Origin: Betaproteobacteria bacterium
GTDB lineage: Bacteria; Pseudomonadota; Gammaproteobacteria; Burkholderiales; SG8-39
Direction of reading: 5' to 3'
Assembly (NCBI GenBank): GCA_029863065.1
Contig: JAOTWE010000002.1
Span: forward strand, 1-45,891
DNA length: 45,891 nucleotides
In this document: piece by piece, positions 11,848-40,080 of the stretch
Layout of the letters: every line of letters begins with the position of its first letter
How positions within the stretch are numbered: position 1 is the first letter of the stretch
Notes under the pieces: generated by a model
The model's input: the letters and a program-made list of their open reading frames with translations, nothing else
Told to the model about the DNA's origin: nothing
The model's database searches: none
Translations under genes and position numbers: made by a program

Positions 11848-11923
<76 letters not shown>

Positions 11924-12036
11924 GTGGGAAGTCGCGGATTTTACAGCAGATCCGGCCTTCCGGGACGATGCGCGGGCGCATTGCAGCAGCGCCCGCGCAG
12001 CCGCTATGATGGCTGCGCCTTTGCGGGGTATCTCCA

Positions 12037-12777: not shown

Positions 12778-12781
12778 GCCC

Positions 12782-13222: not shown

Positions 13223-13263
13223 TGTGACACAACGGTCCGGACGCGGCTTATCCGCATGTCCGG

Positions 13264-14043: not shown

Positions 14044-14151
14044 TTCTTAGGATCGTACTGTATTGCGGAAAGGCGCGATTATGCGCCGAAGCCCGGCCGC
14101 CGCGGCAAGCGCAGTGCGGGGCGCCGTTCGGCGCCGCGTTAACATGCCAGC

Positions 14152-14853: not shown

Positions 14854-14860
14854 ACATGGC

Positions 14861-18247: not shown

Positions 18248-18257
18248 AGTCGCTGAG

Positions 18258-18331
18258 TGGGCCGGCTTGGATTCGAACCAAGGACCAAGGGATTATGAGT
18301 CCCCTGCTCTGACCGACTGAGCTACCGGCCC
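18258..18331 (-). tRNA. tRNA with anticodon CAT. Probably tRNA-Ile2 (lysidine-modified) rather than elongator Met. Not an initiator (G1:C72). No encoded CCA.
   Basis: Hand-folded: GGGCCGG TA GCTC AGTCGGTCA GAGC A GGGGA CTCATAA TCCCT TGGTC CTTGG TTCGAAT CCAAG CCGGCCC A. Anticodon arm and variable loop resemble E. coli ileX as I remember it. Confidence 0.88.
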
Positions 18332-26700: not shown

Positions 26701-27131
26701 CGCTTGGCCTCGATCAGGTAGCCATCCGTGGCGTGCGCAAAGCCGCCGATGCCGTCGGCGGCGACGACGCGGTGGCAGGGGATGACAATCGGCAGGCGAT
26801 TGTCGCCACAGGCCTGGCCTACGGCGCGCGCCTCGCCGCCGAGCTCGCGCGCCAGCTCGCCGTAGGTGCGCGTGCGGCCGCGCGGAATGGCGCGCATCGC
26901 TGCCCAAACGCTTTTCTGAAACACCGTTCCCTCGATGGCGAGCGGCAGGTCGAACGCCGCGTCCGCATCCTCGCGATAGCGCTCGAGCTGGCGCGCCGCG
27001 CGCTCGGCGAGGGCGTTTTTCGGCTTGACCACGGGTGCCGAGGGCGGCAGGTAGCGGATTTCGGCGATGCGCTCTTCGCGCGCCACCACCGCGACCTTCA
27101 TCTTCGGAAAAGCAACGACTACGTCGTACAT
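26649..27131 (-). CDS. ogt: Methylated-DNA-protein-cysteine methyltransferase (Ogt type).
   Basis: The last 160 codons of track ORF 26649..27896: GTVFQKSVWAAMRAIPRGRTRTYGELA...IVIPCHRVV (PCHR active site). Confidence 0.88.
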   Translation of the reverse strand: MYDVVVAFPKMKVAVVAREERIAEIRYLPPSAPVVKPKNALAERAARQLERYREDADAAFDLPLAIEGTVFQKSVWAAMRAIPRGRTRTYGELARELGGEARAVGQACGDNRLPIVIPCHRVVAADGIGGFAHATDGYLIEAKRWLLLHEAQADAFALKP

Positions 27132-28123
27132 AGCTTCTCGATCTTCGCCAGGAGATCGTCCGGCACTTCGATGCCTTCCTGCGCCAGGCGCTTTTCGGCG
27201 GCGAAGCGCCGCGCACCCGGCAGTCGCACGCCCTCGTCGGCGAGCATGGCGCGCACCACGGTCTCGACGCGCTCCAGGTACTTGTCGGTGCCGGCGAGCG
27301 CCGCCGGATCGATGGCGAGGAACGCCTGGCCGATGCGCGGCTTGTTGCCCTGCTCGGCGAAGAACGAATCCGCCTCGGGTCCGATCGCCGCGCCGGTGAG
27401 CGCGGCGCACATGAGCTCGAAGGCGAGCGCGAGCATCGCGCCCTTCGACCCGCCGATGGGAAAAAGGCTGCCGCGCTCGATGGCTTCCTTCGGGTCGGTC
27501 GTCGGCTTGCCGTCTCGGTCGAGCGCCCAGCCCTCGGGGATGCGCTCGCCCTTTTGCATTGCCACCATGATCTTGCCGCGCACCACGGTGGTGAGCGCCA
27601 GGTCGACGACGATCGGATCGGCGCCCTTGCGCGGAAAGGCGAAGGCGACCGGATCGGTGCCGAACAGCGCCTTCCTCCCGCCCCAGGCGGGGATCGCCGC
27701 CGGCGAATTGGTGAACGCGACACCCACCAGTCCCGCCGCCGCGACCTCCAGGAGGTGGATACCGAGCACGCCGACGTGCGCGCTGTTGCGGATGCCGGCA
27801 AAGCCGATGCCGTTCTTGTGCGCTCGTCCAATCACCTCCTTGATCGCCAGGGCGCAAGACTCGTAGGGCAGGCCGTCGGCATTGTCGATCAGGCATACGG
27901 CGGCCTTCTCGGCGGCGATCGCCGGGCGCGCGGCGCCGTCGGCGCGGCCGTTTCTCAGCATCGAGCAGTAGAACGGCACGCGCGACACGCCGTGCGTGGG
28001 CAGACCCTGCTGCTCGGCACGCAGCAGATGCTGCGCCGCGGTGTCGGCCATGATTTCGTGCGCGCCCGCGTTCAACAGCGCCTGCTTCGCCAGACGGAAC
28101 AGTTCGCCCGGATTCTTCTTCAT
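27119..28123 (-). CDS. Ldh_2-family (malate/L-lactate/sulfolactate dehydrogenase-like) NAD(P)-dependent oxidoreductase.
   Basis: QQGLPTHGVSRVPFY, LFGTDPVAFAFP, PIGGSKGAMLALAFELM. Preferred start is ATG 28123 (MKKNPGEL). Confidence 0.85.
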   Translation of the reverse strand: MKKNPGELFRLAKQALLNAGAHEIMADTAAQHLLRAEQQGLPTHGVSRVPFYCSMLRNGRADGAARPAIAAEKAAVCLIDNADGLPYESCALAIKEVIGRAHKNGIGFAGIRNSAHVGVLGIHLLEVAAAGLVGVAFTNSPAAIPAWGGRKALFGTDPVAFAFPRKGADPIVVDLALTTVVRGKIMVAMQKGERIPEGWALDRDGKPTTDPKEAIERGSLFPIGGSKGAMLALAFELMCAALTGAAIGPEADSFFAEQGNKPRIGQAFLAIDPAALAGTDKYLERVETVVRAMLADEGVRLPGARRFAAEKRLAQEGIEVPDDLLAKIEKLCTT

Positions 28124-28163: not shown

Positions 28164-28835
28164 ATGGCAAGCATGATCGAACTGAAGGCGGCTGACGGCC
28201 ACAAGCTCGCCGCCTATCGCGCCGAGCCGCAGGGCAAGCCGCGCGGCGCCGTCGTCGTGATCCAGGAAATATTCGGCGTCAACAAGCACATCAAGGCGGT
28301 CGCCGACGGCTACGCGGCGGACGGCTACCTCGTCATCGCGCCAGCGATGTTCGACCGCGAGCAGCGCGGCTACGACACCGGCTATACGCCGCCCGAGATC
28401 GAGACCGGCCGCGCACTCATGCAGAAGATGGACTGGAAGCAGACCATGCAGGACACGGCGGCGGCGGTCGAAGTCGCCAAGGCCGCCGGCAAGGTCGGCA
28501 TCGTCGGTTATTGCTGGGGCGGCACCGTGGCCTGGGTGGCGGCGGCACGCCTGAGCGGTCTCGCCTGCGCGGCACCCTATTACGGCGGTGGCATGCCGGG
28601 ATTCATCGGCGAGAAGCCCAAGTGCCCGACGATGTGCCATTTCGGCGAGCAGGACCAGACGCCGAGCCTGGCCCAGGCCAAGGAAATCGCCAAGGCGCAT
28701 CCCGAGATCACCGCGCACTACTACCCGGGCGCCGGGCATGGCTTCAATTGCGATCACCGCGCGTCCTTCAACGCCGAAGCCTCAAAGCTCGCGCGTCAGA
28801 GGACACTCGAGTTCTTCAGGAAGCACCTCGGCTAA
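28164..28835 (+). CDS. Dienelactone hydrolase-family protein (carboxymethylenebutenolidase-like).
   Basis: AGGAGGAGGA lies 4 nt before ATG 28164. VVVIQEIFGVNKHIKAVADGYAADGYLVIAPAMFDR; nucleophile elbow GIVGYCWGG; GAGHGF. Confidence 0.85.
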   Translation: MASMIELKAADGHKLAAYRAEPQGKPRGAVVVIQEIFGVNKHIKAVADGYAADGYLVIAPAMFDREQRGYDTGYTPPEIETGRALMQKMDWKQTMQDTAAAVEVAKAAGKVGIVGYCWGGTVAWVAAARLSGLACAAPYYGGGMPGFIGEKPKCPTMCHFGEQDQTPSLAQAKEIAKAHPEITAHYYPGAGHGFNCDHRASFNAEASKLARQRTLEFFRKHLG

Positions 28836-28847: not shown

Positions 28848-28866
28848 GGCGGGCCCGTGGCCCGCC
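28848..28866. terminator. GC-rich hairpin between convergent genes (candidate bidirectional terminator).
   Basis: ggcgggcc cgt ggcccgcc, an 8-bp stem. No clear U run. Confidence 0.35.
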
Positions 28867-28890: not shown

Positions 28891-30597
28891 CTACAGTAGC
28901 GTTTCTCCCGGCCTCACACGGGTAAACGCGACCGGCTTCATGGCGATCGAGAGCCGGGCGTCGCCAAAGCGGGCGCTGGTGTAGGCGGAGCGCTCCAGCG
29001 CGCCGGCAGCTGGGAAATCCTCGCGGAAGTGCGCGCCGCGCGAGTCCTCGCGCGCGAGCGCGGCCTGTGCGACGACGCGGCTCGTCTCGGTGAGGCTCCT
29101 CAGGTTCAGCCAGTCGTGCCAGCTCAAGCTGAAAGCGCGATTGGCGTCGGCGATGCCGGTCGACGCCAGTTCGTCCCCGATCGCCGAGATTTCGGCGAGC
29201 GCCGCGTGCAAGCCAGCGGCGTCGCGGATGATGCCGACCTTCTCCCACATCACGTCATAGAGCCGCTCGCGCAGGGCTTCCAGCGAGCCATGCGACGCGG
29301 CGCGTTTCGGCTCGCAGCGCGCGATCGCGGCGTCGACCGCGGCGCGCTCCGGATCGCGCAGCGCGCCCGCCTTTTTCACCCACGCCGCCATCGTGTCGCC
29401 CGCCACCGCGCCGAACACGGTGGAATTGGCAACGCCGTTGCCGCCCAGGCGATTCGCGCCGTGCACGCCACCCGCGTCCTCGCCGGCGACGAACAGCCCC
29501 GGCAGCGCGGTCGTGCAGTCCGGCGCGAACTCCACCCCGCCCATCATGTAGTGCGCCGTGGGCACCACCTCGACGAGCCCGCCGGCGAGGTCGAACCCGC
29601 AGTCGGCGCAGCGTTCCACCATGCCCTTGAAATTCTTCGCCACGTTGTCCGCGCCAAGATGCGCCATGGAGATGTACAGGCCGCCGTTCGGCGTGAGGTT
29701 CCCCTTGCGCATCTGCGTGTACATCGCGCGCGAGACGAAATCGCGCGTCGCGCGTTCGGCGAGCGGGTCGTAGCCCGGCATGAAGCGCTCCCGCGCGCCG
29801 TTCAGCAGGTAGCCGCCCGCGCCGCGCAGCCCTTCCTCGAGCACCGTGCCGGTCATGCGCGTGTGCGGCCCGGCAAGTAACCCCGTCGGGTGGAACTGCA
29901 CCATCTCCATGTCGCGCAGCGGCAGTCCGGCGCGCAGCGCCATGGCAAGCCCGTCGCAGCTCTTGTCGCCCGAAGGCGTGTGGTAGCGGTACATGGTCGG
30001 CCCGCCGCCGGTGGCGAGCAGCACCGCCTTCGCGCGCACGAATACGTATTCGCCCGTGCGCATGTCGATCATGAGCACGCCGGCGAGCGCCGCACCGTCG
30101 CGAGACTTCACCAGCTCGACCGCGCGGTGCTCTTCGAGCCGGTCGATGCGGCGCGCCCAGACCTGCTCGGCAAGGCGGTTGATGATCTCGATGCCTGTGA
30201 GATCGCCCTTATGCACCGTGCGATCGAACGTCTGCCCGGCGAAGGCTTTCTGGTGCACCGTGCCGTCGGCGTTGCGGTCGAAGAAGCAGCCGAGCTCGTT
30301 CTCGAGCTCGCGCACGCGCTCCACCGCCAGCGTGACCAGCTTCCAGGCGAGTTCCTGGTCGGGCAGCCACTTGCCGCCCTCGATGGTGTCCATGAAGTGG
30401 CGCTCGACCGAGTCCTCACTGGCGAGCGCCACGTTGTAGCCGCCCTGCACCATGCGCGTGCAGCCGCACTTGCCGAGCAGACCCTTGACCGCGACGGTGA
30501 TCGAAAGCGAAGGATCGGCTGCATGTGCGTGCAGCGCGGCGAACAGGCCCGCGCCACCCGAGCCGAGGATCAGGATATCGGTGTCAAGCGAGCGCAC
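28891..30597 (-). CDS. SdhA/FrdA-family FAD flavoprotein with Cys at the canonical covalent-His position.
   Basis: DILILGSGGAGLFAAL; GKCGCTRMVQGG (E. coli SdhA has TRSHTVSAQGG); MVQFHPTG; EEGLRGAGGYLLN; TAHYMMGG; VHGANRLGGNG; REDSRGAHFR. GTG start overlaps the permease gene by 14 nt. Confidence 0.88.
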   Translation of the reverse strand: MRSLDTDILILGSGGAGLFAALHAHAADPSLSITVAVKGLLGKCGCTRMVQGGYNVALASEDSVERHFMDTIEGGKWLPDQELAWKLVTLAVERVRELENELGCFFDRNADGTVHQKAFAGQTFDRTVHKGDLTGIEIINRLAEQVWARRIDRLEEHRAVELVKSRDGAALAGVLMIDMRTGEYVFVRAKAVLLATGGGPTMYRYHTPSGDKSCDGLAMALRAGLPLRDMEMVQFHPTGLLAGPHTRMTGTVLEEGLRGAGGYLLNGARERFMPGYDPLAERATRDFVSRAMYTQMRKGNLTPNGGLYISMAHLGADNVAKNFKGMVERCADCGFDLAGGLVEVVPTAHYMMGGVEFAPDCTTALPGLFVAGEDAGGVHGANRLGGNGVANSTVFGAVAGDTMAAWVKKAGALRDPERAAVDAAIARCEPKRAASHGSLEALRERLYDVMWEKVGIIRDAAGLHAALAEISAIGDELASTGIADANRAFSLSWHDWLNLRSLTETSRVVAQAALAREDSRGAHFREDFPAAGALERSAYTSARFGDARLSIAMKPVAFTRVRPGETLL

Positions 30598-32614
30598 GGT
30601 CCCGCTTCAGCCACTGCAGCAGCACCACGAGCGCGACCAGCGCGAAGCCGATGGCATCGAACATCGCTTTAGGATAAACGAGGAGGAAGCCGGCCACGAT
30701 CAGCATCAGTCGCTCGGCGAGGTTGGTGCGCTTGAGCAACCACCCCTGCAGGCCGCCGGCGAGCGCCGCGATGCCGATCGCGGCGGTGAAGGTCACGAGC
30801 GCGATCGAGCCCCAGTCGGCGTTGCCGAGCGTCTTGATCGAGCCCGTCAGCAGGAGCCCGGTGCCGCTCGGATCGAGCACGAACATGAACGGCACGAGAA
30901 AGGCGGGTGCCGTGTACTTCCAGCACTGCAACGTGGTCTTGTAGGGGTCACCGCCCGTGATGGCGGCCGCCGCGAACGGCGACAGCGCGGTGGGCGGCGA
31001 GACCTCCGACAGCACCGCGTAGTAAAAGATGAACATGTGCGCCGCGAATTCGGGAACCTTCAGTGCGATCAGCGCCGGCGCGGCGATCACCGCGCAGATG
31101 ATGTAGCTCGCGGTCACCGGCACCGCCAGCCCGACGATCCAGACGATGAGCGCGGTGTAGATCGCCGTGAGCAGCAGCGAGTGCCCGGCATAGGCGAGCA
31201 CGATCGAGCTGAACTTGAGCCCGAGCCCGGTGAGCGTCACCACGCCGACGATGAGGCCGGCGCCGGCGCAGGTGGCGGCGACGTTGAGCACCGCGCGCGA
31301 GCCGCCGTCCAGGGCCTTGATGAGTCCCGAGCCGAGGAAGCCGCGCAGCAACGGCTCGCGGCCGCGCAGCCAGTCGTAGGACAGCAGCGCGCAGTCCCGG
31401 TGCAGGAAGCTGGTCACGAGGGCCACCACGGTCGCCCAGAACACCGACAGCTCGGGCGAGAAGCCGAGCAGCATGAAGACGACGATCGACACCAGCGACA
31501 GGAAATGGAACCAGTACTTCTTCGTCAGGCTCCAGGCCGACTCGACCTGCTCGAACAGCACGTCCTTCATGCCGAACTTGCGCACGTCGATCTCGACCAT
31601 GATGAACAGCGCGAGGTAATACAGGCAGGTCGGGATCGTCGCCATCAGCACCACGTCCAGGTACGAGATCTTCAGGAACTCGGCGATGAGGAACGCCGCG
31701 GCACCCAGCACCGGTGGCGAGATGATCGCGCCGAGGCCGCCCGCGGCCAGCAGTCCCCCGGCTTCGTTCTTGCTGTAGCCGACCTTGGCGAGCATCGGCG
31801 CGGCCACCGCGCCGAGTGTCACCGTGGTCGCCACGCCGGATCCCGACGGTCCGCCGAGCAGGAACGAGGCCAGCGTCACCGTGCGCCCCGCGCTGGTCGG
31901 CTTGCCGCCCATCGCGGCAAATGAAAAGTCGATGTAGAACTTGCCCGCGCCGGAAAACTGCAGGAAAGCGCCGTAGATCGTGAACAGGATGATCAGCGTC
32001 GATGAAACCGCGATCGCGGTACCGTAGATGCCCTCCAGCGTCATGTACATGTGGCCCACCAGGCGCGGAATCTCGTAGCCCTTGTGCGTCCAGGGCGCCG
32101 GCAGGTACTCGCCGAAGAAAGCGTACGCCAGGAAGCACGAGGTGATGAACGGCATGATCCAGCCGGTGGTGCGCCGCATCGCTTCCAGGATGAGGACGAC
32201 GAGGACCACACCGAACGCGATGTCCCAATTGTTGGGCAGGATCGAGCGGTCGAAGAAATCGTCGCCGCCCGCGATCAGGTAGACGGTGGTGGCGATGCCC
32301 GCCGCCGCCAGCAGCCAGTCCCACCCCATGACGCGGTGCCGGAAGCGCTTGGCGAGCGGAAAGATCAGGAACGTCAGAAACAGCACGAAGGCGACATGGA
32401 TCGCGCGCAGGTGCTCGGGCCGCACGATGGCGTACGCGGTGTAGAGGTGAAACAGCGACATCGCTACCGCGACCGTGGCGACCAGCCCGGCGAGCCAGCC
32501 CGTGAGCTTGTTGTGGACGCCCTCTTCCCGCTCGATTATCTCCTCGGCGCGCGCCAGCGCCTCGGCGCTGATTTCGGCTGCAGGCTTGTGCAGCAGCGTG
32601 ACGTCTTCGCTCAT
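30584..32614 (-). CDS. TRAP transporter fused permease (TAXI-type small and large membrane components).
   Basis: About 676 aa from ATG 32614 (GGAGGGAG upstream). Polytopic: LFHLYTAYAIV...FLLGGPSGSGVATTVTLGAVAAPML...GLGAIISPPVLGAAAFLIAEF. Confidence 0.88.
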   Translation of the reverse strand: MSEDVTLLHKPAAEISAEALARAEEIIEREEGVHNKLTGWLAGLVATVAVAMSLFHLYTAYAIVRPEHLRAIHVAFVLFLTFLIFPLAKRFRHRVMGWDWLLAAAGIATTVYLIAGGDDFFDRSILPNNWDIAFGVVLVVLILEAMRRTTGWIMPFITSCFLAYAFFGEYLPAPWTHKGYEIPRLVGHMYMTLEGIYGTAIAVSSTLIILFTIYGAFLQFSGAGKFYIDFSFAAMGGKPTSAGRTVTLASFLLGGPSGSGVATTVTLGAVAAPMLAKVGYSKNEAGGLLAAGGLGAIISPPVLGAAAFLIAEFLKISYLDVVLMATIPTCLYYLALFIMVEIDVRKFGMKDVLFEQVESAWSLTKKYWFHFLSLVSIVVFMLLGFSPELSVFWATVVALVTSFLHRDCALLSYDWLRGREPLLRGFLGSGLIKALDGGSRAVLNVAATCAGAGLIVGVVTLTGLGLKFSSIVLAYAGHSLLLTAIYTALIVWIVGLAVPVTASYIICAVIAAPALIALKVPEFAAHMFIFYYAVLSEVSPPTALSPFAAAAITGGDPYKTTLQCWKYTAPAFLVPFMFVLDPSGTGLLLTGSIKTLGNADWGSIALVTFTAAIGIAALAGGLQGWLLKRTNLAERLMLIVAGFLLVYPKAMFDAIGFALVALVVLLQWLKRDRALA

Positions 32615-32630
32615 CGGTGTCTCCCTCCAA

Positions 32631-32662
32631 CAAAAAGCCCCGCCAGCAGGCTGGACGGGGCT
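32631..32662 (-). terminator. Hairpin plus U5 between the binding-protein and permease genes (candidate intra-operon attenuator).
   Basis: Minus-sense RNA AGCCCCGUC CAGCCUGCU GGCGGGGCU UUUUG. Confidence 0.5.
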
Positions 32663-32678
32663 CGGGTGCGGCGCAGCC

Positions 32679-33632
32679 TCAGTTGATCTTGATGCCCTGC
32701 TCCGCGAAGTACTTGACGGCGCCGGGATGCCAGGGAATGGACGAAGCATCCGTCTTCTGGTTCTCGAGCTTGAAGCTGGCCGCTTCCTTGTGCACGCGGA
32801 TCAGCTCGTCGCGGTGGTCGAACACCGCCTTGACGATGCTGTAGGCGGTCTTGTCGTCCATGCTCTGATGGGCGATCAGCAGGTTCATCACCGTGGCCTG
32901 GTGATTGTCCGCCTCCATGCCTTTGTACACGTCCTTCGCGATCACGTCCTTCACGTACAGGTTGCCGTACTTCCTGTTCATCGCCGGCACCAGGTCGGCG
33001 ATGTCGATCATCCTGATCTTCGCGCCGGGCGTGTTGGCGAGGTCGGTCACCGCGGCGGTCGGCAGGCCGCCGACCCAGAAGAAGGCGTCGATCTTGCGGT
33101 CCTTCAGTGCGTTCACCGATTCGGCGACGCCGAGCCGCTCACGCGTCATGTCCTTGTCCTTGTCCAGCCCCGCCGCCTCGATGACGCGGAACGCCATCAC
33201 TTCGGTGGCGCTGCCGCCCGAGCCGGTGGAGACGCGCTTGCCCTTCAGGTCCGAAATCTTCGTCACGCCGGTGCCCTCGACCGAGACCACGTGCATGCGG
33301 TTGGGGTAGAGCACCATCAGCGTGCGCACCGGGACCGGCTTGCCGCTGAACTTGTCCTGCCCCTTGTAGGCGTCGAGCGTGGCGTCCGCCATGCTGAGCG
33401 CGATATAGGGCTTGCCGGTGCCGATCAGCTGCAGGTTGGCGACCGAGCCGCCGGTGACCTCGGCGGTCGCCTGCATGCCGGACACGTACTTCGAGAGCAC
33501 GGCGGCGATGCCGCCGCCCATCGGGTAGTAGACGCCGCCGGTGCCACCGGTCGCAATGGAAATGTTCTGTGCCTGTACTGCGAACGCGAGCGTGCCGGCG
33601 GCGAGCGCCGCGACGCGCAACAGCGATTTCAT
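32679..33632 (-). CDS. TAXI-family TRAP transporter periplasmic solute receptor.
   Basis: Signal peptide MKSLLRVAALAAGTLAFAVQA. ISIATGGTGGVYYPMGGGIA...VANLQLIGTGK..IALSMAD...RVSTGSGGSATE...WHPGAVKYF. AGGAGGAAAGACC precedes the ATG. Confidence 0.88.
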   Translation of the reverse strand: MKSLLRVAALAAGTLAFAVQAQNISIATGGTGGVYYPMGGGIAAVLSKYVSGMQATAEVTGGSVANLQLIGTGKPYIALSMADATLDAYKGQDKFSGKPVPVRTLMVLYPNRMHVVSVEGTGVTKISDLKGKRVSTGSGGSATEVMAFRVIEAAGLDKDKDMTRERLGVAESVNALKDRKIDAFFWVGGLPTAAVTDLANTPGAKIRMIDIADLVPAMNRKYGNLYVKDVIAKDVYKGMEADNHQATVMNLLIAHQSMDDKTAYSIVKAVFDHRDELIRVHKEAASFKLENQKTDASSIPWHPGAVKYFAEQGIKIN

Positions 33633-33679
33633 GGTCTTTCCTCCTGTAGGTGGGGTACTGCCGTAGTGCGCGGCGGATT

Positions 33680-34288
33680 CTACCCCACGCCAAGCCGCCG
33701 TAGCGCCTCGGCGCGCTTCGCTTCCGCGGCGTTACGCACCCGCGAATACAGGCTGCCGCCGAAGCTGTCCATGGCCACCAGCAGGGGGCCGAAGCCCCGC
33801 ACGCGGAATTTCCACAGCGACTCCGGATACAGGTCGTCCAGATCGACGTCTTCGATCGCCTCGACCCAAGTGGTCTCGAGCGCCGCGGCGCCGCCGATGA
33901 TCGCGACGTAGACGCCGCCCAGCTCGCCGAAAGTCGCGAGCGAATTTTCGCGCAGCCCGCCTTTGCCGATGATCATGCGCACGCCGTACTGCTGCATGAG
34001 CGGCCGGCTGAAGCGTTCCATGCGGTCGCTGGTGGTCGTGCCGATGCACAGCGGCGCATAGCCGGCGGGGTGCTGCGCGCTCTTTTCCACCTTGCGCACG
34101 TTGGGCGCGGTGTGGATCACCGCGTGCCCCGAGAGGTCGAAGCGGGTCTTCCTGCCGCGGTCGAACATGTGGATCTGCGTCGCGTCGCGGATGCCGTAGA
34201 GCGTGCCGTTGAGCGTCACCGTGTCCTCGACGCGCAAGGCGCGCGTCCGCGCCTCGCTCACGGGCATGGTGAAATCGTAGTGCGCCAT
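33680..34288 (-). CDS. Fe-S type hydro-lyase (tartrate/fumarate dehydratase family) beta subunit.
   Basis: 202 aa: TLNGTLYGIRDATQ..., AVIHTAPNV, IGTTTSDRME, MIIGKGG. Confidence 0.85.
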   Translation of the reverse strand: MAHYDFTMPVSEARTRALRVEDTVTLNGTLYGIRDATQIHMFDRGRKTRFDLSGHAVIHTAPNVRKVEKSAQHPAGYAPLCIGTTTSDRMERFSRPLMQQYGVRMIIGKGGLRENSLATFGELGGVYVAIIGGAAALETTWVEAIEDVDLDDLYPESLWKFRVRGFGPLLVAMDSFGGSLYSRVRNAAEAKRAEALRRLGVG

Positions 34289-34292
34289 CGCC

Positions 34293-34850
34293 CTAGCCGC
34301 CGAGGAGCTTCTTCTTCAGGTCGTCCTGCACCGGCTTCGGGCCGAGCCAGACGCGCAGCAGCGCCTGGTAGAAGTCCTCGCCGGCGATGGGCGCGCCGGC
34401 GGCCTTGCCGTCCACCGTCATCTGCGTGCCGGTTCCGGGCAGCCAGTCGAGCGTGATCGCCATGCCCTTCTTCGCTTCCTGCATCTGCGCCATGACCGCA
34501 TTCAACTCCGCAATGCGCGGCTCGAGCGCCTTCATCGTCTGCTCGTCGTGATTCGGGCGCATGCCGTCGACCAGCGCCTTGGCGAAGGTATCGGCATCGA
34601 CGTTGCGCAGCATGTGGATGGCGATGCGTTTCGCCCCCGGCTGCATCACCAGGTCGGCGTTCGCATCGCGCACGTAGAGCGCCATGGCGTACACGTCGAA
34701 AATGAAGCGCTGGCGCAGGCCCGCGCCGGTGAGCGCAAGCTCGGAGTCGGCGACGCGCACGCGCTCGTCGAATTTCACGCCCCCCACTTCGGCGGCCTGC
34801 AGCGGCAGGGCGAACACGAGGAACAGCAGCAGCAGCACCCTAGTGGCCAT
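34293..34850 (-). CDS. Secreted chalcone-isomerase-like (Chalcone_3-type) protein.
   Basis: Signal peptide MATRVLLLLFLVFALPLQA. VGGVKFDERVRV..ELALTGAGLRQRFIFDVYAMALYV. The start overlaps the alpha-subunit stop by 11 nt, and the stop is 4 nt from the beta-subunit ATG. Confidence 0.7.
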   Translation of the reverse strand: MATRVLLLLFLVFALPLQAAEVGGVKFDERVRVADSELALTGAGLRQRFIFDVYAMALYVRDANADLVMQPGAKRIAIHMLRNVDADTFAKALVDGMRPNHDEQTMKALEPRIAELNAVMAQMQEAKKGMAITLDWLPGTGTQMTVDGKAAGAPIAGEDFYQALLRVWLGPKPVQDDLKKKLLGG

Positions 34851-35715
34851 ATTCCACCCCCGTTGCGCGTATGGTGGCGCGCGCTCGCCGCGCCGAGTGG
34901 CACTGCATGTTCACCGCCACCGGGTTCATGGTGATGTGCGTGGCCGCGGTCTCGACGTGCACGGCAAAGGCCGTGGAATCGCCGCCCAGCCCCTGCGGCC
35001 CGACGCCGAGCACGTTTACCGCCTCGCTGAGCGCGCGCTCGAGCTTCGCGCCCTCCGCGTCCTCGCAATTCGAGCCGAGCGGCCGCGTCGCCGCGATCTT
35101 CGCCAGGTGCATGCACAGGTCCGCCGTGCCGCCCACGCCCACGCCGACGATGGTCGGCGGGCAGGTCATGCCGCCCGCCTGCAGCACGCAGTCGACGACG
35201 AACACCTTGATGGCATCGATGCCGTCGGCGGGGATCGCCATCTTCAGCCAGGAGTTGTTCTCCGAGCCCGAGCCCTTGGGCACCATCTCGATCACCAGAG
35301 TGCCGGGCGCGGCGGTGAAATCGAGGTTGATCACCGGGATGCCGCGGCCGCAGGAGGTCTGCTCATTGACGCGCGTGGTGGGATGCACGATCGACGAGCG
35401 GAAGCAGTTTTCGCGCGTCGAGCGCGCGCAGCCCGCGCGGATGGCTTCCTTCAGCGCCACGCCGTCGACCTCGACGCCGCGCCCGATCCAGACGTTGTAG
35501 ACCGGGATGCCGGTGTCCTGGCACAGCAGATTGTCGGTGTCCTCGGCGACCTTGATGTTGGCGATCATCGTGCCGAGCACGCGCTTCGCGCCGGCGTTGC
35601 TCTCGCGCTTCGCGAGCGCATCGAACCCCTGCTTGATGTCGGGCGGCAGGCGCTTCAGCGCGCGGATGTAGAGCTCCTTCGCCGTCTCCTCGACGCTCTT
35701 CAGGTCGACTCTCAC
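34840..35715 (-). CDS. Fe-S type hydro-lyase (tartrate/fumarate dehydratase family) alpha subunit.
   Basis: 291 aa: LCQDTGIPVYNVWIG, MVPKGSGSENNS, CPPTIVGVGVGGTADL, GLGGDSTAFAV. GTG start. Confidence 0.85.
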   Translation of the reverse strand: MRVDLKSVEETAKELYIRALKRLPPDIKQGFDALAKRESNAGAKRVLGTMIANIKVAEDTDNLLCQDTGIPVYNVWIGRGVEVDGVALKEAIRAGCARSTRENCFRSSIVHPTTRVNEQTSCGRGIPVINLDFTAAPGTLVIEMVPKGSGSENNSWLKMAIPADGIDAIKVFVVDCVLQAGGMTCPPTIVGVGVGGTADLCMHLAKIAATRPLGSNCEDAEGAKLERALSEAVNVLGVGPQGLGGDSTAFAVHVETAATHITMNPVAVNMQCHSARRARATIRATGVEYGH

Positions 35716-35727
35716 GATCGGAACATT

Positions 35728-36030
35728 CTACAGGGCGAGCGCGAAAGCCAGCCCGGCGGCGAGCGCGCATCCGGCGGCGAGCGCCGCCAGGCCCTTGGCC
35801 CAGTCGCGCCAGGGCAGGAACTCGAGCATCAGCACCCGTACGCCGCCCGCGAGGTGCAGGGCGAGCAGCGTCACCAGGCCCCACTCGGCGAATTTCACCG
35901 CCGGCTGCTCGGTCCACGCGAGGAAGGCATCCAGCTGCAGCGCGCGCGCCAGCACCCAGAAGTGGACCGGCAGAAAGAGCGCGAGCGCTAACCCCGAGAG
36001 CCGGTGCGCGAGCGCGAGCCCGCGGCTCAA
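35728..36030 (-). CDS. SdhC-like (Sdh_cyt) membrane anchor subunit, putative.
   Basis: 100 codons from TTG 36030 (TTGA overlap with the upstream stop). Three TM segments. AHRLSGLALALFLPVHF and LLALHLAGGVRVLMLEF resemble the SdhC HRxSG and H..G.R motifs. Only the C-terminal part of track ORF 35728..36339 is used. Confidence 0.55.
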   Translation of the reverse strand: MSRGLALAHRLSGLALALFLPVHFWVLARALQLDAFLAWTEQPAVKFAEWGLVTLLALHLAGGVRVLMLEFLPWRDWAKGLAALAAGCALAAGLAFALAL

Positions 36031-36365
36031 GCGAACACCCCGCGCACCGCCTGCAGGCCCATGCCGGCGAGCACCACGGCGAAGACGATGAGCGCCAGAT
36101 CGCGTGCGCGGCCACGCCAACCGAACCATTCCGCAAGTACGGCTTTCAGTCCGATCGGCGCGTGCACCGCGACGGCGAGGACGAACACCGAATATAAGGC
36201 GGCCCAGGCAATATTGCCGCGCGTGCGCGCGAGAATCTCGGCGCCGGTGAGGCCGCCCTGTACCGCGTAGATGATGGTCGCGAGGTGCACCAGCACGCAG
36301 ACCGCCAGCACCGCGGCGCTCGCGCGCTGCGCCACCCACAGCAGCGTCTCGGTGCGCCGCGTCAC
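36027..36365 (-). CDS. SdhD-like membrane anchor subunit, putative.
   Basis: 112 codons from GTG 36365 (GTGA overlap with the FeS-subunit stop). Three TM segments. LWVAQRASAAVLAVCVLVHL and VLAVAVHAPIGLKAVLAEW resemble E. coli SdhD FILVRATAIVL.. and LIHAWIGMWQVLTDY. Confidence 0.55.
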   Translation of the reverse strand: MTRRTETLLWVAQRASAAVLAVCVLVHLATIIYAVQGGLTGAEILARTRGNIAWAALYSVFVLAVAVHAPIGLKAVLAEWFGWRGRARDLALIVFAVVLAGMGLQAVRGVFA

Positions 36366-37078
36366 AGTTCGCCTCGCAGCGCGGCGACCGCCACCGCGCG
36401 CTTCAGGCCGGCAATGCCGGCGGTGGGCGAGAGCGCCTTCGGACAGCGCTCCGTGCAGCTCATGTGCGTGTGGCACGACAGGCAGCCCGCGTCGCCGGCG
36501 ACCGCGCGCAGCCGGTCGGCATTCCCGGCATCGCGCTCGTCGTTCACGAGCGTCCAGGCGCGGTTGAGCGCCGCCGGGCCGAGATAGTCCGGATTGCGCG
36601 CCACGACGTCGCAGGCGCTGTAGCACACCGCGCAGCCGATGCATTCGATGCCTGCGTCGGCGAGACCGCGCTTCTCCGATTGCGGCGAGACGCGCGCGAA
36701 TTCGTCGTGGCGCGAGCGATCGCCCTTGAACTGGCCGCCGGCGCGCGCCCACTTGTCGAAGAACTCGCGCATGTCGGCGACGAGGTCGCGGATCACCGGG
36801 AGATTCCTCAGCGGCGCGACTTCCAGCCGACCGCCTCGCGCCACCCTGTCGACGTGCGTGCGGCAGGTCCAGCGCGGCGCACCGTTCACCGTCATGGCGC
36901 AGGAGCCGCACATGCCGACGCGGCAGGCAAAGCGGTAGGCGAGCGTCGGATCGAGCGCGCGCTGGATGTGGCTCACCACGTCGAGCACGGTCTGGCTTTC
37001 GCGGCGCGGCACCTCGTACTCGCGGAAGGCGCCGGCGGCGTCGCCGCGCCAGACACGGACCTTCAGCGTCGCGTTCAT
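36362..37078 (-). CDS. Succinate dehydrogenase/fumarate reductase-type iron-sulfur subunit.
   Basis: 238 aa from ATG 37078 (ATGA overlap). FACRVGMCGSCAMTVNG..RWTC (2Fe-2S), CIGCAVCYSAC (4Fe-4S), CLSCHTHMSCTERCPK (3Fe-4S/4Fe-4S). Confidence 0.88.
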   Translation of the reverse strand: MNATLKVRVWRGDAAGAFREYEVPRRESQTVLDVVSHIQRALDPTLAYRFACRVGMCGSCAMTVNGAPRWTCRTHVDRVARGGRLEVAPLRNLPVIRDLVADMREFFDKWARAGGQFKGDRSRHDEFARVSPQSEKRGLADAGIECIGCAVCYSACDVVARNPDYLGPAALNRAWTLVNDERDAGNADRLRAVAGDAGCLSCHTHMSCTERCPKALSPTAGIAGLKRAVAVAALRGEL

Positions 37079-37770
37079 GCGTACTGCAGGAGGATGCGCG
37101 TCGTCTCTTCCGGCGCGCTCACCATCAGGTCGTGCCCGGTTTTCAGATCGATGAACGACGACCCGGGCTTTCCCCGGTGGCGCTCCTTGATCGCCGCCAG
37201 TGCCGGCATGGCAGGCTCGCGGCAATCGATGTACGCCTTCGGCAAGCCGTTGCCGATGGCGCCGCCCCAGTGCATTCTCTGATCGAAGGTCGCGAACGGG
37301 TGCGGCGTCATGCGCCGCCGGACCCACTCGGTATCTGCCGGATCGGCGAAGCCATAGATGGCGGGATCGGGCGCCGGGATGGTCTTGACACCGCCCTGCA
37401 TCACGGCCGACTTGCGCCGCGTCTCGACTACCTCCGGCGGAAAGACGTCGGACCACGCCTGCCCGTCTTCGACCAGCACGGCATCGAGATAGACGAGCTG
37501 CCGCAGGCGCGCCTTCGCACGCGCCGCGACGCCGGTGATGACGATGCCGCCGTAGCTGTGGCCCACCAGCACGATGTCGGTCAGTTCCTCGGCCTCGAGG
37601 AGCCCGACGACATCCTGGATGTGCGTCTCGAGGTTGACCTCGCTGCTGAGCAGATGCCGCCGCTCGCCCAGACCGGTGAGCGTGGGGCAGAACACGCGAT
37701 GCCCGGCCGCAGCCAGGCGATCCGCGACGCGGCGCCAGCACCAGCCGCCGTGCCAGGCGCCGTGAACCAA
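37075..37770 (-). CDS. Alpha/beta-fold hydrolase (SABP2/methylesterase-like).
   Basis: VHGAWHGGWCW, nucleophile elbow LVGHSYGG, GHDLMVS. The only available start is TTG 37770. Confidence 0.8.
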   Translation of the reverse strand: MVHGAWHGGWCWRRVADRLAAAGHRVFCPTLTGLGERRHLLSSEVNLETHIQDVVGLLEAEELTDIVLVGHSYGGIVITGVAARAKARLRQLVYLDAVLVEDGQAWSDVFPPEVVETRRKSAVMQGGVKTIPAPDPAIYGFADPADTEWVRRRMTPHPFATFDQRMHWGGAIGNGLPKAYIDCREPAMPALAAIKERHRGKPGSSFIDLKTGHDLMVSAPEETTRILLQYA

Positions 37771-37780
37771 TACGTAGGTG

Positions 37781-38950
37781 CTAGGCGGACTCGTACAGCC
37801 TCGTCAGCACGAATTCGCGGTGGCCGAGCGCCTCGGCGGCGGTGAGCCGGCCGTTGGCGGTGCGGAACATGCACTCGAGCAGTTTTTCGCCCGCCTGGTC
37901 CGGCGTCATTTCCTTCCTCAGCAATCCCGAGACGTCGACGTCGATGTGCTCGCTCATCGTGCGCACGGTGCGCGGATTCGCGGAGAGCTTGATCACCGGC
38001 AGGATCGGATTGCCGATGACGTTGCCCTGGCCGGTGGGAAAGAGATGCACCGCGAAACCGGCCGCGGCGCACAGGGTCACCATCTCGGCCGCGGCGGACG
38101 ACGAATCCATGAACCACAGGCCCGGTCCGCTCGGCATTTCCGCCTTGTCGAGCACGCCGTCGACGACACATTTCCGGCCGATCTTCTGGATGTTGCCCAG
38201 CGCCTTCTCCTCGATGGTGGTGAGGCCGCCCTCAATGTTGCCCTTGGTCGGCTGCGAGTCCATGAGATCGCTCGTCTTGTGGCGATCCACGACCTGCTGG
38301 TAGCGGTCGAAGACGAACTGGAACTTCTTCCGTACTTCATCGTTGCGGCAGCGCGCGGCCACGAGCTGCTCGCCGCCGGTGAGCTCGGTGGTCTCGCCGA
38401 ATACCAAAGTGACCTTGTGCGGGTACATCTTGTCGAAGGCGTTGCCGACGGTCGGATTCGCGCCACAGCCGGAGGTGGTGTCGGATTCCCCGCACTTGGT
38501 GGACACCCAGAGGTCCTTCAGCGGCCGCTCCTCGCGCCGCAGCTCGGAGGCCCACTGCACGTATTCCTTCGCCGCCTTGGAGGCGCGCATGATGGTGTCG
38601 TGGTCGCCGTGCTGCTCGATGCCGAATTCGGAAACCGGCTTGCCGGTGGCGCGGATGCCGTCGGCCACTTTTTTCGCCCAGCCGTTTTCGATGCAGATCA
38701 CCACCACGGCGGCGACGTTCGGATTCGAGCCGGCGCCGATCAGCGTGCGGAAGTGCAGGTCGAGGTCGGCGCCGAACTGGAGGCGCCCGTAGGGATGCGG
38801 GATCGCCAGCGCCCCCTTGACGTTGTTGGCCACCGCCTCGGCGGCGGCATTTGACAGGTCATCCACCGGCAGGATGAGAACGTGATTCCTCACGCCGACG
38901 CGCTGGTTTTCGCGCTTGTAGCCCCAGAAGCTCGCTTTCGAGAGGTCCAT
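37781..38950 (-). CDS. UxaA-family hydro-lyase large subunit (GD_AH_C domain; SuyB-like).
   Basis: [49 protein letters not shown] 38950 is preferred; the track start is GTG 38959. Confidence 0.85.
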
Positions 38951-38952
38951 GC

Positions 38953-39234
38953 TCACCACCGCTTGGTTTTCAGGTTCTGGATGTGCGTGTGCTCGCCCCT
39001 GGCGATCGGCGCCACCACCTTGCCGATGTCAACGCCGTACTTGATCACCGTGTCGCCAGGCCTGTAGTCCTTCAGGGCGAGCTTGTGGCCGATCGGGATG
39101 TCGCTCTTCGCCGTGATCTTGATTTCCTTGTCGTCCTCCATGATCCAGCCGGTGAGCTCCTGGCCCTTCTTCACGCCCTCGACGACGACGACGCCGACGC
39201 CGTCGCCTTCTTCATGCACGACGAAATGGATCAT
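38953..39234 (-). CDS. SAF-domain small subunit of the UxaA-family hydro-lyase (SuyA-like).
   Basis: 93 aa from ATG 39234: [27 protein letters not shown]....[42 protein letters not shown]. Confidence 0.8.
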
Positions 39235-39277
39235 GCAACACCTCGCTACGGGAAGCCGATATTCTAGCCGCAGGAAT

Positions 39278-39315
39278 GGCGGCAAGCGAAGCGACCGTAA
39301 CGGTGCCTTGCCGCC
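39278..39315. promoter_or_regulatory. 9-bp inverted repeat in the divergent control region.
   Basis: ggcggcaag (20 nt) cttgccgcc, 44-81 nt upstream of the operon's first ATG (39234) and about 90 nt upstream of 39405. Confidence 0.3.
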
Positions 39316-39404
39316 GTTAGACCTGCGCCAGGGGGATGAACATGCGCTTTATTGCGGTTGCCGTGCTCGCGACGATGCTTACCGAATGGAATTTCCAATC
39401 CGTC

Positions 39405-39899
39405 ATGTTACGGTTCTATAAGTGGCTGCTGCTCCCGTCATGCATTGCCGGCTTAGTCGCCAGTGCCCATGCCCAAATGGTGCCAGCGAAATGGTCTCCA
39501 CAGGTGTGGGTCAATGCAGGTGCCTATTCCGTTCACTTTGACCGCAGTAAGGACTTCCGCGAAGACAACATCGGTCTCGGCGCCGAGGTAGGGCTCGCCG
39601 AGGATCACGCGCTGACGGCCGGCACTTTCATCAACAGTGAAAGGGCAAGAAGCCGCTATGGCGCCTACCAATGGCGTCCGCTGCATTGGCGACCCGCCGG
39701 CGTCAACGTGAGCGCGGGAATCGCTTTGGGTGCTTTCGACGGCTATCCCGGGTTTCGCGACGGCGGCTGGTTCCTTGCCGCGTTACCGATGCTCGCCGTG
39801 GAATACGAGAGGGTCGGCGTGAATCTCTTCATCGTGCCTACGATTTCGAACCGCGTCGACGGGGCGGTATCGGTTCAGTTCAAGCTGCGCCTTTGGTAG
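39405..39899 (+). CDS. Outer-membrane beta-barrel protein, tentatively PagP-like (lipid A palmitoyltransferase family).
   Basis: Signal peptide MLRFYKWLLLPSCIAGLVASAHA. By-eye colinearity with E. coli PagP: SVHFD vs TWHARF, TFINSE vs AFKDSW, YQWRPL vs STWRPL, C-terminal aromatic residue. Not verified by alignment. Confidence 0.45.
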   Translation: MLRFYKWLLLPSCIAGLVASAHAQMVPAKWSPQVWVNAGAYSVHFDRSKDFREDNIGLGAEVGLAEDHALTAGTFINSERARSRYGAYQWRPLHWRPAGVNVSAGIALGAFDGYPGFRDGGWFLAALPMLAVEYERVGVNLFIVPTISNRVDGAVSVQFKLRLW

Positions 39900-40080
39900 T
39901 CAAGAACAGATAGGAAAAGCAATCCGAGGCTGGTGGCCCGGCATGCCATGAAATGCCTCTTCAGGCCACGTAGCCCCCGGCGCGGGCTCGCACATCGAGC
40001 GGATTTGTAGTCCGATGCGAGCGCGCATAGCCCGCTGGTCCGGCAAGCATTCTGGAACAGGGACCGGGTATTCTGCCACC

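Follow-up and report, generated by a model that had tools for sequence, protein, structure and literature searches.

The stretch of DNA analyzed here, hereafter the window, comprises 45,891 nt of contig JAOTWE010000002.1 of Betaproteobacteria bacterium (SG8-39; assembly GCA_029863065.1) and is a chromosomal fragment of about 68% G+C that carries rpoD, dnaG, tsaD, plsY, folB and xerD. It contains, at 28891-39234, a putative organosulfonate catabolic operon of twelve genes, all located on the minus strand and running from 39234 down to 28891. In operon order, these encode a small and a large subunit related to the sulfolactate sulfo-lyase SuyAB, an alpha/beta-hydrolase, an SdhB-like iron-sulfur subunit, SdhD- and SdhC-like membrane anchors, the alpha subunit of a class I fumarase-type Fe-S hydro-lyase (fumA), a secreted CHI-fold protein, the beta subunit of the hydro-lyase (fumB), the binding protein and the fused permease of a TAXI-type TRAP transporter, and an SdhA/FrdA-like flavoprotein. 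The family assignments are backed by Pfam and NCBIfam profile searches, the small SAF-type subunit having no Pfam hit. A preliminary description of this DNA had named the same families, and all of its family calls hold; its reading of the UxaA-type pair as a dehydratase is revised below.

As that description had stated, the genes are co-directional and tightly coupled, and our analysis recovered the overlaps and the two real gaps it had reported. The suyA/suyB and suyB/hydrolase junctions are gaps of 2 and 10 nt, while 12 nt separate sdhC from fumA and 4 nt the CHI gene from fumB. Three start/stop overlaps of 4 nt (ATGA at 37075-37078, GTGA at 36362-36365 and TTGA at 36027-36030) are accompanied by longer overlaps of 11 nt (34840-34850) and 14 nt (30584-30597), and the only larger gaps are those of 47 nt between fumB and the TAXI gene and of 64 nt between the TAXI and permease genes (32615-32678). 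A fold and sequence scan located in the latter a minus-strand stem-loop followed by a U run (32636-32652) that resembles a terminator or attenuator; its stem, read from 32652 to 32636, is followed by TTTTTGTTGG. An 8-bp GC hairpin, not assigned to a strand, lies at 28848-28866 between the convergent sdhA-like and dienelactone-hydrolase genes, with the perfect stem GGCGGGCC-ACG-GGCCCGCC, no U run and a folding z-score of -2.2. Both structures had been noticed previously. The start choices, including those of the 100-aa SdhC-like and 112-aa SdhD-like proteins, are supported by locus L095 (L-numbers denote the related loci and contigs compared with the window), since its gene calls have the same or nearly the same lengths in operon order (93, 389, 230, 238, 112, 100, 291, 177, 202, 318, 676 and 573 aa). 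A single transcript for the twelve genes is suggested by the spacing and the conserved synteny. No regulator gene was found adjacent to the operon within the window, in agreement with the preliminary description, and a simple scan of the window locus found no sigma-70-like promoter.

The first two genes of the operon provide the link to sulfur. The suyA-like gene (38953-39234) encodes a SAF-type small subunit of 93 aa that is 59% identical, at full and equal length, to SuyA of Cupriavidus pinatubonensis, a UxaA-family protein encoded beside hpsN/hpsO, and that also matches the N-terminus of galactarate dehydratase in NCBIfam. The suyB-like gene (37781-38950) encodes a large subunit of 389 aa with the second and C-terminal GD_AH domains (Pfam), which is 79% identical to the C. 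pinatubonensis SuyB beside hpsN/hpsO and about 65% identical to Paracoccus proteins. Within our collection, the large subunit shares 62-79% identity with this group and at most 40% with all other split UxaA proteins. Related loci were compared by counting features within 10 kb in 51 loci of at least 15 kb whose flavoprotein is at least 69% identical to that of the window, using tblastn of reference proteins followed by clustering and annotation of the remaining ORFs. In this set, homologues of the small subunit (59-91% identity) are present in 31 loci and suyB in 30.

In C. pinatubonensis JMP134 and Paracoccus pantotrophus, the C-S bond is cleaved by the (R)-sulfolactate sulfo-lyase SuyAB (PMC9594981). 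The architecture of that enzyme, namely adjacent genes for a small UxaA-family subunit of about 90 aa and a GD_AH large subunit of about 390 aa, is found in the window, where the two subunits are split in the same way. We regard the first two genes as suyAB orthologues and not as a generic sugar-acid dehydratase, and the cluster is therefore read as an organosulfonate desulfonation pathway. Release of sulfite and pyruvate from (R)-sulfolactate is assigned to the putative SuyAB pair by orthology, and it is highly probable that the operon belongs to a sulfonate pathway feeding or ending in SuyAB. In these two organisms the enzyme is supplied by 2,3-dihydroxypropane-1-sulfonate (DHPS; through HpsNOP), cysteate or imported sulfolactate, whereas in the window suyAB are the first genes of an operon that also encodes a complex-II-like enzyme and a hydratase of the fumarase type. 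Of the SlcC/ComC racemase system of those organisms, a ComC-like Ldh_2-family gene lies near the window operon too (27119-28120, minus strand), while SlcC is absent from the window. Among NCBIfam models this Ldh_2 protein matches L-sulfolactate dehydrogenase best, scoring 205 bits where the cut-off is 500, and it is 44% identical to the product of a Paracoccus Ldh-family gene paired with a hydroxyacid dehydrogenase; its genomic context makes it a candidate (R)-sulfolactate dehydrogenase of the ComC type. The functional unit extends to this gene, beyond the limits of 28891-39234 drawn in the preliminary description.

The last gene (28891-30597) encodes the SdhA/FrdA-like flavoprotein of 568 aa, with FAD_binding_2 and Succ_DH_flav_C domains (Pfam), which we propose as the catalytic subunit of a 3-sulfopropanoate dehydrogenase. 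It scores 331 bits against a cut-off of 727 bits for forward SdhA and reaches none of the equivalog cut-offs for SdhA, FrdA or NadB by a wide margin, its best NCBIfam model being the thiol:fumarate reductase subunit TfrA. The protein aligns end to end with Escherichia coli SdhA (1NEK_A), FrdA (1KF6-type) and Mycobacterium smegmatis Sdh2 (7D6V). Conservation was scored over 70 homologues from Alpha- and Betaproteobacteria, in which the catalytic R285 and the substrate-binding H236, H349 and R383 (SdhA H242, R286, H354 and R399 being the equivalent set) are invariant. The position of the histidine that links flavin adenine dinucleotide (FAD; SdhA His45, FrdA His44) is occupied by Cys46 in all 70 sequences (window 30453-30462). 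Furthermore, the threonine of the active-site loop (SdhA Thr254, FrdA Thr244) is replaced by an invariant Glu254, and the loop (residues 244-256, window 29820-29870) carries an insertion of 5-6 residues with the invariant motif T246-R247-x-T249.

These features define a distinct subfamily, in which the retained catalytic and substrate residues together with the loop changes would mean an altered substrate and not a loss of function. An invariant cysteine exactly at the histidine position suggests a replacement linkage and not a mere loss. This relative of complex II may accordingly carry an 8-alpha-S-cysteinyl flavin, which to our knowledge would be new for the superfamily. An L-aspartate-oxidase-like cysteate oxidase was also considered, as NadB models score well, and was rejected, since SdhB/C/D and the hydratase are always co-encoded. 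In a hand alignment with E. coli NadB, the position taken as that of the NadB-specific glutamate is an alanine in the window flavoprotein.

The remaining subunits of a complex-II-like enzyme are encoded upstream. The SdhB-like iron-sulfur subunit (36362-37078; 238 aa) contains Fer2_3 and 4Fe-4S domains and scores 192 bits on TIGR00384, for which the cut-off is 88 bits; the cysteine ligands for the 2Fe-2S, 4Fe-4S and 3Fe-4S clusters are at least 95% conserved in 43 homologues. Both anchors match Sdh_cyt, with succ_dehyd_anc as the best NCBIfam model of the SdhD-like anchor (36027-36365; 112 aa) and succ_dehyd_cytB as that of the SdhC-like cytochrome b subunit (35728-36030; 100 aa, TTG start), each below its cut-off. 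Conserved residues are H27, Y58 and H68 in the former and H9-R10-x-S12, H23 and H59 in the latter, so that both anchors appear to keep candidate haem and quinone residues. The module shares with complex II (E. coli SdhCDAB and FrdABCD; type C, two anchors) its four-subunit make-up, a three-cluster Fe-S subunit, two small Sdh_cyt anchors with conserved histidines, and the catalytic arginine and the His/Arg substrate-binding residues. Unlike in E. coli complex II, the genes run B-D-C...A and are interrupted by those of the hydratase and the transporter, a non-canonical arrangement that had been pointed out before and that our comparison revealed to be a conserved feature of related loci. It also differs in the cysteine in place of the FAD-linking histidine, the glutamate in place of the loop threonine, the arginine-bearing loop insertion, equivalog scores of roughly half the cut-offs, and the sulfonate-catabolism context. 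The genomic context and the active-site changes argue against succinate or fumarate as the physiological substrate.

Flavoproteins of the SdhA family have been recruited elsewhere, as in TcuAB, the tricarballylate dehydrogenase of Salmonella, and in the 8-methylmenaquinol:fumarate reductase MfrABE. In these systems, as proposed here, an SdhA/FrdA-family flavoprotein desaturates a -CH2-CH2- unit beside a carboxylate, the electrons going to the membrane. In the Salmonella system, however, this transfer involves one unrelated Fe-S/haem membrane protein, TcuB, and Mfr has a periplasmic location, whereas the window module keeps the full SdhB/C/D set and its flavoprotein begins with a cytoplasmic FAD-binding motif.

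The hydro-lyase is composed of an alpha subunit of the class I fumarase type (34840-35715; 291 aa; Fumerase) and a beta subunit (33680-34288; 202 aa; Fumerase_C, matching 7XKY_B and 5DNI), and is our candidate for a sulfoacrylate hydratase. The alpha subunit passes the NF004885 ('fumarate hydratase') cut-off with 285 against 276 bits and matches the Methanocaldococcus jannaschii fumarate hydratase alpha subunit 7XKY_A with E = 3e-64, while the beta subunit is below all equivalog cut-offs, its best NCBIfam model being tartrate dehydratase beta. Conserved residues are C65, C185, C272 and D67 in alpha and R34, T85, S87, R89 and K109 in beta. The signature of class I fumarases and TtdAB is present, with three cluster cysteines and CQDTG in alpha, and T-T-S-x-R-M and GKGG in beta. 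Subunit lengths, cluster cysteines and motifs are the same as in TtdAB and in the M. jannaschii enzyme (7XKY), to which the hydratase is closest; unlike those, the window hydratase is encoded inside a sulfonate operon and its subunit genes are split by that of a secreted CHI-fold protein.

A second type of hydratase occurs beside the same flavoprotein. It is about 34% (alpha) and 27% (beta) identical to that of the window, with Q66 replaced by G and T86 by A, and is found in alphaproteobacterial and marine clusters of the order B-D-C-A-fumA'-fumB' (L002, L044, L063, L068, L070, L072, L076, L079, L084-L089 and L091-L094; L080 has both types). Often only a TauE-family gene lies nearby, and no suyAB. 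This second type may hydrate with a different regiochemistry and free sulfite directly.

The transporter consists of a TAXI-family TRAP solute-binding protein (32679-33632; 317 aa; TRAP_TAXI, TIGR02122, 291 against 84 bits) and a fused TRAP permease (30584-32614; 676 aa; TRAP_fused, TIGR02123, 556 against 321 bits). The nearest solved structure of the former is 1US4, that of Thermus TT1099, which belongs to a TAXI-TRAP system with a known ligand and with the same combination of binding protein and fused DctQM-type permease. The window system differs in being exchangeable with a NitT/TauT-type ATP-binding cassette (ABC) system in syntenic operons. No TAXI system for a sulfonate is mentioned in the sulfonate literature examined. 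The earlier suggestion that sulfonated acids be tested was apt.

A scan with the flavoprotein over one genome per GTDB species returned at least 599 matching places, the best 80 of which are 69-88% identical; cultured strains among these 80 are Massilia niastensis, Curvibacter delicatus, Parapusillimonas granuli, Imbroritus primus, several Paraburkholderia and Methylobacterium. The module thereby recurs in no fewer than 80 species-representative genomes, and its cultured carriers include Paracoccus versutus, Methylobacterium radiotolerans JCM 2831, Paraburkholderia domus LMG 31832, M. niastensis DSM 21313, C. delicatus NBRC 14919 and I. primus LMG 32992. In the 51 loci, sdhB/D/C-like genes and both hydratase subunits are present in 46-49. 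Other recurrent neighbours are an Ldh_2 with L-sulfolactate dehydrogenase as best model (37/51), a TauE-family gene (21/51), an SsuC/TauC-type (sulfonate/taurine) ABC permease (18/51), a thiamine pyrophosphate (TPP) enzyme resembling acetolactate synthase or 2-hydroxyacyl-CoA lyase (18/51), a D-2-hydroxyacid dehydrogenase (15/51), and regulators of the GntR-UTRA (20/51) and LysR (16/51) families, while a sulfite-oxidase-family molybdenum enzyme is found in four. At least one strict sulfur marker (suyAB, TauE-family, sulfite-oxidase-family or sulfonate-type ABC permease gene) is carried by 44 of the 51 loci. The locus belongs to a large family of complex-II-like/fumarase-like putative sulfonate modules.

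In betaproteobacteria the usual order is sdhB-D-C, binding-protein gene, fumA, fumB and sdhA, often with suyAB ahead. The exact twelve-gene order, whose recurrence had been raised in the preliminary description, is repeated in one other metagenome-assembled genome (MAG), L095, with the same flanks (PhoD / operon / dienelactone hydrolase / Ldh_2 / ogt / xerD / folB) and a CHI-like protein 83% identical to that of the window. Gene order is stable within the sub-lineage, and only the core is general. The transporter cassette varies between TAXI-TRAP (window, L011-L014, L095 and L096), a NitT/TauT-type ABC system (L003 and L097) and, elsewhere, a TctC-type protein. Between suyB and sdhB lies a variable slot, which holds no gene in L012, L014 and L007 and is filled by a TPP enzyme in L003, by a sulfite-oxidase-family gene in L011, L013 and L073, and by the alpha/beta-hydrolase in the window and L095-L097.

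The sulfite-oxidase-family molybdoenzyme has no obvious signal peptide (L011 3589-4680, L013 790-1857, L073 4154-5236 and L063 6507-7583). The TPP enzyme, of about 540 aa, accompanies both cluster types (L003 2189-3817, L060 2703-4355, L085 16214-17815, L091 19969-21582 and about 20 others). Its identification as Xsc was rejected on scores of 156-170 bits against cut-offs of 620-676; acetolactate synthase and 2-hydroxyacyl-CoA lyase are closest, and sulfopyruvate decarboxylation is one possibility.

A megablast search against plasmids revealed homologous SdhB-D-C/hydratase/flavoprotein clusters in Methylobacterium, Paracoccus, Sulfitobacter and others, with copies of the module on accessory plasmids in at least nine strains. 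The annotated neighbours of the plasmid clusters include TauE/SafE sulfite exporters, split UxaA hydrolases, Ldh-family and hydroxyacid dehydrogenases, YeiH, TPP enzymes and transporters of the ABC and tripartite tricarboxylate types, and similar neighbourhoods occur in Methylobacterium oryzae, P. ferrooxidans and Sulfitobacter. In plasmid pTAV3 of Paracoccus versutus the module is part of a C3-sulfonate island with TauE, Ldh_2 and hydroxyacid dehydrogenase, hpsN/O/P-like genes, a split UxaA pair (SuyAB), a putative sulfate exporter and a sulfite oxidase. Two modules repeatedly stand side by side, and the window has them joined in a single operon. One is a sulfolactate module, made up of suyAB, a 2-hydroxyacid dehydrogenase, Ldh_2, a transporter of its own and a GntR regulator; the other is an SDH/hydratase module (the succinate dehydrogenase (SDH)-like, that is complex-II-like, and hydratase genes, their own binding protein and a LysR regulator). 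This juxtaposition fits sulfolactate as the product of the SDH/hydratase module.

In the assembly collection, 127 index blocks contained a marine, roseobacter-type version of the cluster. There the module is followed by NIPSNAP, TauE, LysR, TctCBA, an L-2-hydroxyglutarate-oxidase-like flavoenzyme, a paralogue of succinate-semialdehyde dehydrogenase (SSADH; 630 bits against the 646-bit cut-off of that model) and a Zn-alcohol dehydrogenase. The SSADH and alcohol-dehydrogenase neighbours offer independent support for a C3 omega-sulfonate chain. Other marine clusters are minimal, with only B-D-C-A, the hydratase and a TauE-family gene. In L085 (1-729; a plasmid of Sulfitobacter sp. THAF37), about 10 kb separate the SDH-like cluster from an annotated 3-sulfinopropanoyl-CoA desulfinase gene, which hints at co-located catabolism of C3 sulfinates and C3 sulfonates. 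A protein search with the Sulfitobacter homologue matched many roseobacters, with no named Roseovarius among the matches listed.

Taken together, the operon may encode a pathway that copies, with sulfonates, the part of the Krebs cycle from succinate through fumarate to malate, to which we give an even chance. In this pathway, the TAXI-TRAP system would import 3-sulfopropanoate, the sulfonate isostere of succinate, and a membrane-bound enzyme composed of the SdhA-like flavoprotein, the SdhB-like Fe-S subunit and the SdhC/D-like haem b anchors would oxidize it to 3-sulfoacrylate, delivering the electrons to quinone. The two-subunit 4Fe-4S hydro-lyase, a class I fumarase paralogue, would then add water to sulfoacrylate and give (2R)-3-sulfolactate, spatially equivalent to L-malate, and this product the putative SuyAB, assigned by orthology, would split into pyruvate and sulfite, while the nearby Ldh_2 could interconvert (R)-sulfolactate and sulfopyruvate. 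Each sulfonate has its isostere in the Krebs cycle, sulfoacrylate corresponding to fumarate, sulfolactate to malate and sulfopyruvate to oxaloacetate. Class I fumarases are L-specific, and under the Cahn-Ingold-Prelog rules (S)-malate has its analogue in (2R)-sulfolactate, the substrate of SuyAB; the hydration product would therefore already have the required configuration and no racemase would be needed, and the window gene set has none. That the SDH-like and hydratase module acts on a sulfonated analogue of succinate is likely, whereas the identity of this analogue with 3-sulfopropanoate is evenly poised.

As regards the literature, bacterial degradation of 3-sulfopropanoate was unreported as of 2024, with the exception of one thesis on Roseovarius nubinhibens, which, as cited there, describes on physiological grounds the conversion of homotaurine to 3-sulfopropanoate, sulfoacrylate and sulfolactate (PMC11489063). 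Reviews of 2022 and 2026 treat the degradation of this compound as still unresolved, and our literature searches found no published genes for the route and nothing tying SDH-like or fumarase-like genes to sulfonates. Bilophila wadsworthia is, like R. nubinhibens, reported to use 3-sulfopropanoate, and Cupriavidus necator H16 is reported to excrete it. The compound arises from the fermentation of sulfoquinovose and DHPS and from homotaurine (PMC11489063), and SSADH-type enzymes oxidize 3-sulfopropanal to it (PMC9594981; Mayer and Cook, 2009, as cited in PMC5320631). There is a somewhat less than even chance that the operon represents the first identified genes for aerobic 3-sulfopropanoate utilization, namely a complex II paralogue, possibly with 8-alpha-S-cysteinyl FAD, and a sulfoacrylate hydratase feeding SuyAB.

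Several observations weigh against the route from 3-sulfopropanoate. In classical complex II the histidyl-FAD linkage is needed for succinate oxidation, and if the replacement of the histidine by cysteine leaves the FAD non-covalently bound, oxidation of a succinate-like couple would be disfavoured; unless Cys46 is thioether-linked, an oxidative role is seriously hampered by the missing linkage. Nor is it obvious how exchanging a substrate-bonding threonine for glutamate would suit an anionic sulfonate. In the hydratase, all catalytic and carboxylate-binding residues of a true fumarase are kept, and a new substrate is therefore not demonstrable from sequence alone; the proposed roles of the flavoprotein and hydratase subfamilies are drawn from sequence and context. 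The window operon contains neither a sulfite exporter nor a sulfite dehydrogenase, the CHI-like protein and the alpha/beta-hydrolase have no explained place in the scheme, and the conserved non-Xsc TPP enzyme has no role in its simple form. In addition, Ldh_2 is a commoner neighbour than suyAB, and the link to SSADH and alcohol dehydrogenase comes from a single marine lineage.

Four other explanations have to be weighed. With the same architecture, the substrate could be a sulfonated C4-dicarboxylate such as sulfosuccinate, from which the SDH-like enzyme would make sulfofumarate; hydration would yield either a gem-hydroxysulfonate collapsing to oxaloacetate and sulfite, or sulfomalate, to be processed by Ldh_2, decarboxylation and SuyAB. 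Sulfosuccinate, a xenobiotic surfactant residue, was reportedly desulfonated aerobically to oxaloacetate and sulfite by a Pseudomonas in work of the 1990s, of which our literature search found no record. The extra invariant arginine of the inserted loop could bind a third anionic group, the minimal marine clusters would fit sulfite release straight after hydration, and the frequent Ldh_2 and TPP enzyme could serve the sulfomalate branch. However, a xenobiotic substrate is hard to square with a module that is 70-90% conserved in hundreds of species, with carriers from soil, freshwater, Antarctic and open-ocean samples; an in-operon SuyAB would be superfluous if hydration already frees sulfite, and a C3 omega-sulfonate chain is what the neighbouring SSADH and alcohol-dehydrogenase genes suggest. 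We consider this explanation unlikely. The preliminary description had favoured a substituted C4-dicarboxylate. This could be a compound free of sulfur, similar to methylsuccinate/mesaconate/citramalate or to tartrate, with the UxaA pair as an ordinary sugar-acid or hydroxy-acid dehydratase. The family-level annotations would permit this, given the 'fumarate hydratase' and tartrate dehydratase scores of the hydratase subunits. It is nevertheless highly improbable in view of the position of the UxaA pair within the SuyAB orthogroup, the sulfur-specific markers of the related loci, and the sulfite-oxidase-family gene between suyB and sdhB in three of them.

Two further explanations concern the direction and the purpose of the complex-II-like reaction. 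The enzyme could be a quinol:sulfoacrylate (or fumarate) reductase, with sulfolactate-derived sulfoacrylate as an electron sink and 3-sulfopropanoate excreted. Loss of the FAD-linking histidine is typical of family members that only reduce, a group in which the soluble fumarate reductases and L-aspartate oxidase are counted, and TfrA is the best model of the flavoprotein. A reductive role is nonetheless difficult to reconcile with a putatively co-transcribed uptake system, with a SuyAB that would compete for sulfolactate, with an invariant cysteine suggestive of a replacement linkage, and with the neighbouring genes for SSADH and alcohol dehydrogenase, enzymes by which 3-sulfopropanoate is formed. 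The carriers, moreover, are MAGs and isolates of Burkholderiales and Alphaproteobacteria, groups that are mostly aerobic and ubiquinone-based, and we find such a role very unlikely. Finally, the genes could encode a second, perhaps sulfite-tolerant, SDH and fumarase that keep the Krebs cycle going, or even the housekeeping complex II of the genome. Neither the cofactor ligands nor the catalytic residues typical of SDH and of class I fumarase have been lost, and our view of the genome's sdh genes is that of the 45.9-kb contig. A housekeeping complex II was rejected on the model score, far below the SdhA and FrdA cut-offs, the absence of the histidine for succinate oxidation, the altered substrate loop and the plasmid-borne copies; a solute-binding-protein gene is, in addition, typically embedded between sdhC and fumA. 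This explanation is barely credible, and the same evidence upholds the earlier proposal of a dedicated uptake and oxidation/hydration route for a succinate analogue. That interpretation was half right: the route would be a sulfonate one ending in SuyAB, and instead of a substituted C4-dicarboxylate the C3 sulfonate 3-sulfopropanoate, in which a sulfonate replaces one carboxylate, is the likelier substrate.

Two operon genes are lineage-specific accessories. The alpha/beta-hydrolase (37075-37770; 231 aa from a TTG start) resembles SABP2 and hydroxynitrile lyase (Abhydrolase_6 and PDB relatives) and occupies the variable slot. It is absent from 80 GTDB-representative loci and present in L095, L096 and L097, so that the ester- or lactone-cleaving step postulated earlier is not part of the core but limited to a narrow sub-lineage. 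An exact-sequence look-up returned no record of the protein, presumably reflecting a different start call. Its start region was compared in the window (37770-37810, minus strand), L095 (6033-6070), L096 (4838-4875) and L097 (2515-2540). There is no canonical start upstream of the TTG at 37770, and in L095 and L097 the sole start is a GTG lying one codon deeper in the gene. The four codons that precede the TTG (S-T/S/A-Y/F-V) are nevertheless conserved in all four contigs, with synonymous third-position changes, and encode the beta-strand ahead of the HG oxyanion motif. The L096 gene has its own ATG and 28 extra nt, whereas in the other three contigs the suyB stop lies within the equivalent coding stretch. 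Non-canonical initiation, a +1 shift giving a SuyB-hydrolase fusion, or a truncated protein are all possible.

The secreted Chalcone_3 (CHI-fold) protein (34293-34850; 185 aa; PF16036, E = 1e-46) has a signal sequence, which would place it in the periplasm, and a sequence search of the PDB found no relative. Its gene is translationally coupled between those of the cytoplasmic Fe-S hydratase subunits and is highly conserved in an uncultured Burkholderiales lineage. More than 120 protein clusters of 71-90% identity contain homologues encoded on contigs shared with the flavoprotein; the gene is present in 8 of the 51 representative loci and, in the window lineage, always lies between both hydratase genes, while in L056 and L077 it adjoins TAXI-TRAP genes instead.

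Downstream, a dienelactone-hydrolase-family gene (28164-28835, plus strand; PF01738) is a convergent neighbour conserved in the window lineage, with the same position in L003, L007, L011-L014 and L095-L097. On the other side, about 0.7 kb of lower G+C separate suyA from phoD (39235-40014), where L095-L097 have only about 40 nt. The stretch looks like an insertion; a 187-aa ORF within it (39336-39899, plus strand) with a hydrophobic N-terminus gave no Pfam or NCBIfam hit. Upstream of rpoD, signalling genes are densely packed (1-18250): a PAS-GGDEF-EAL protein, two hybrid histidine kinases and a response regulator of the LuxR type are encoded there, along with SapC and a haemolysin-III family protein. 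A region of lower G+C at 14861-18247 encodes a signalling protein of 1128 aa, of the GGDEF-EAL type as read from its translation, and tRNA genes lie at 11851-11923 and 18258-18331.

The operon and its relatives give a concrete candidate gene set for the missing 3-sulfopropanoate step of the organosulfur cycle. If the assignment is true, a proteobacterial module widespread in soil, freshwater and marine environments could remove a major share of the 3-sulfopropanoate that stems from sulfoquinovose and DHPS or from homotaurine; with sulfosuccinate as the substrate, it would instead account for how a major class of surfactants is biodegraded. The Cys46/Glu254/Arg247 signature of the flavoprotein would be a marker for this flux in metagenomes, and 3-sulfopropanoate would possibly be the first sulfonate ligand of a TAXI-TRAP transporter. 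Furthermore, the operon would show that complex II and class I fumarase have been duplicated and re-specialized for a sulfonate isostere.

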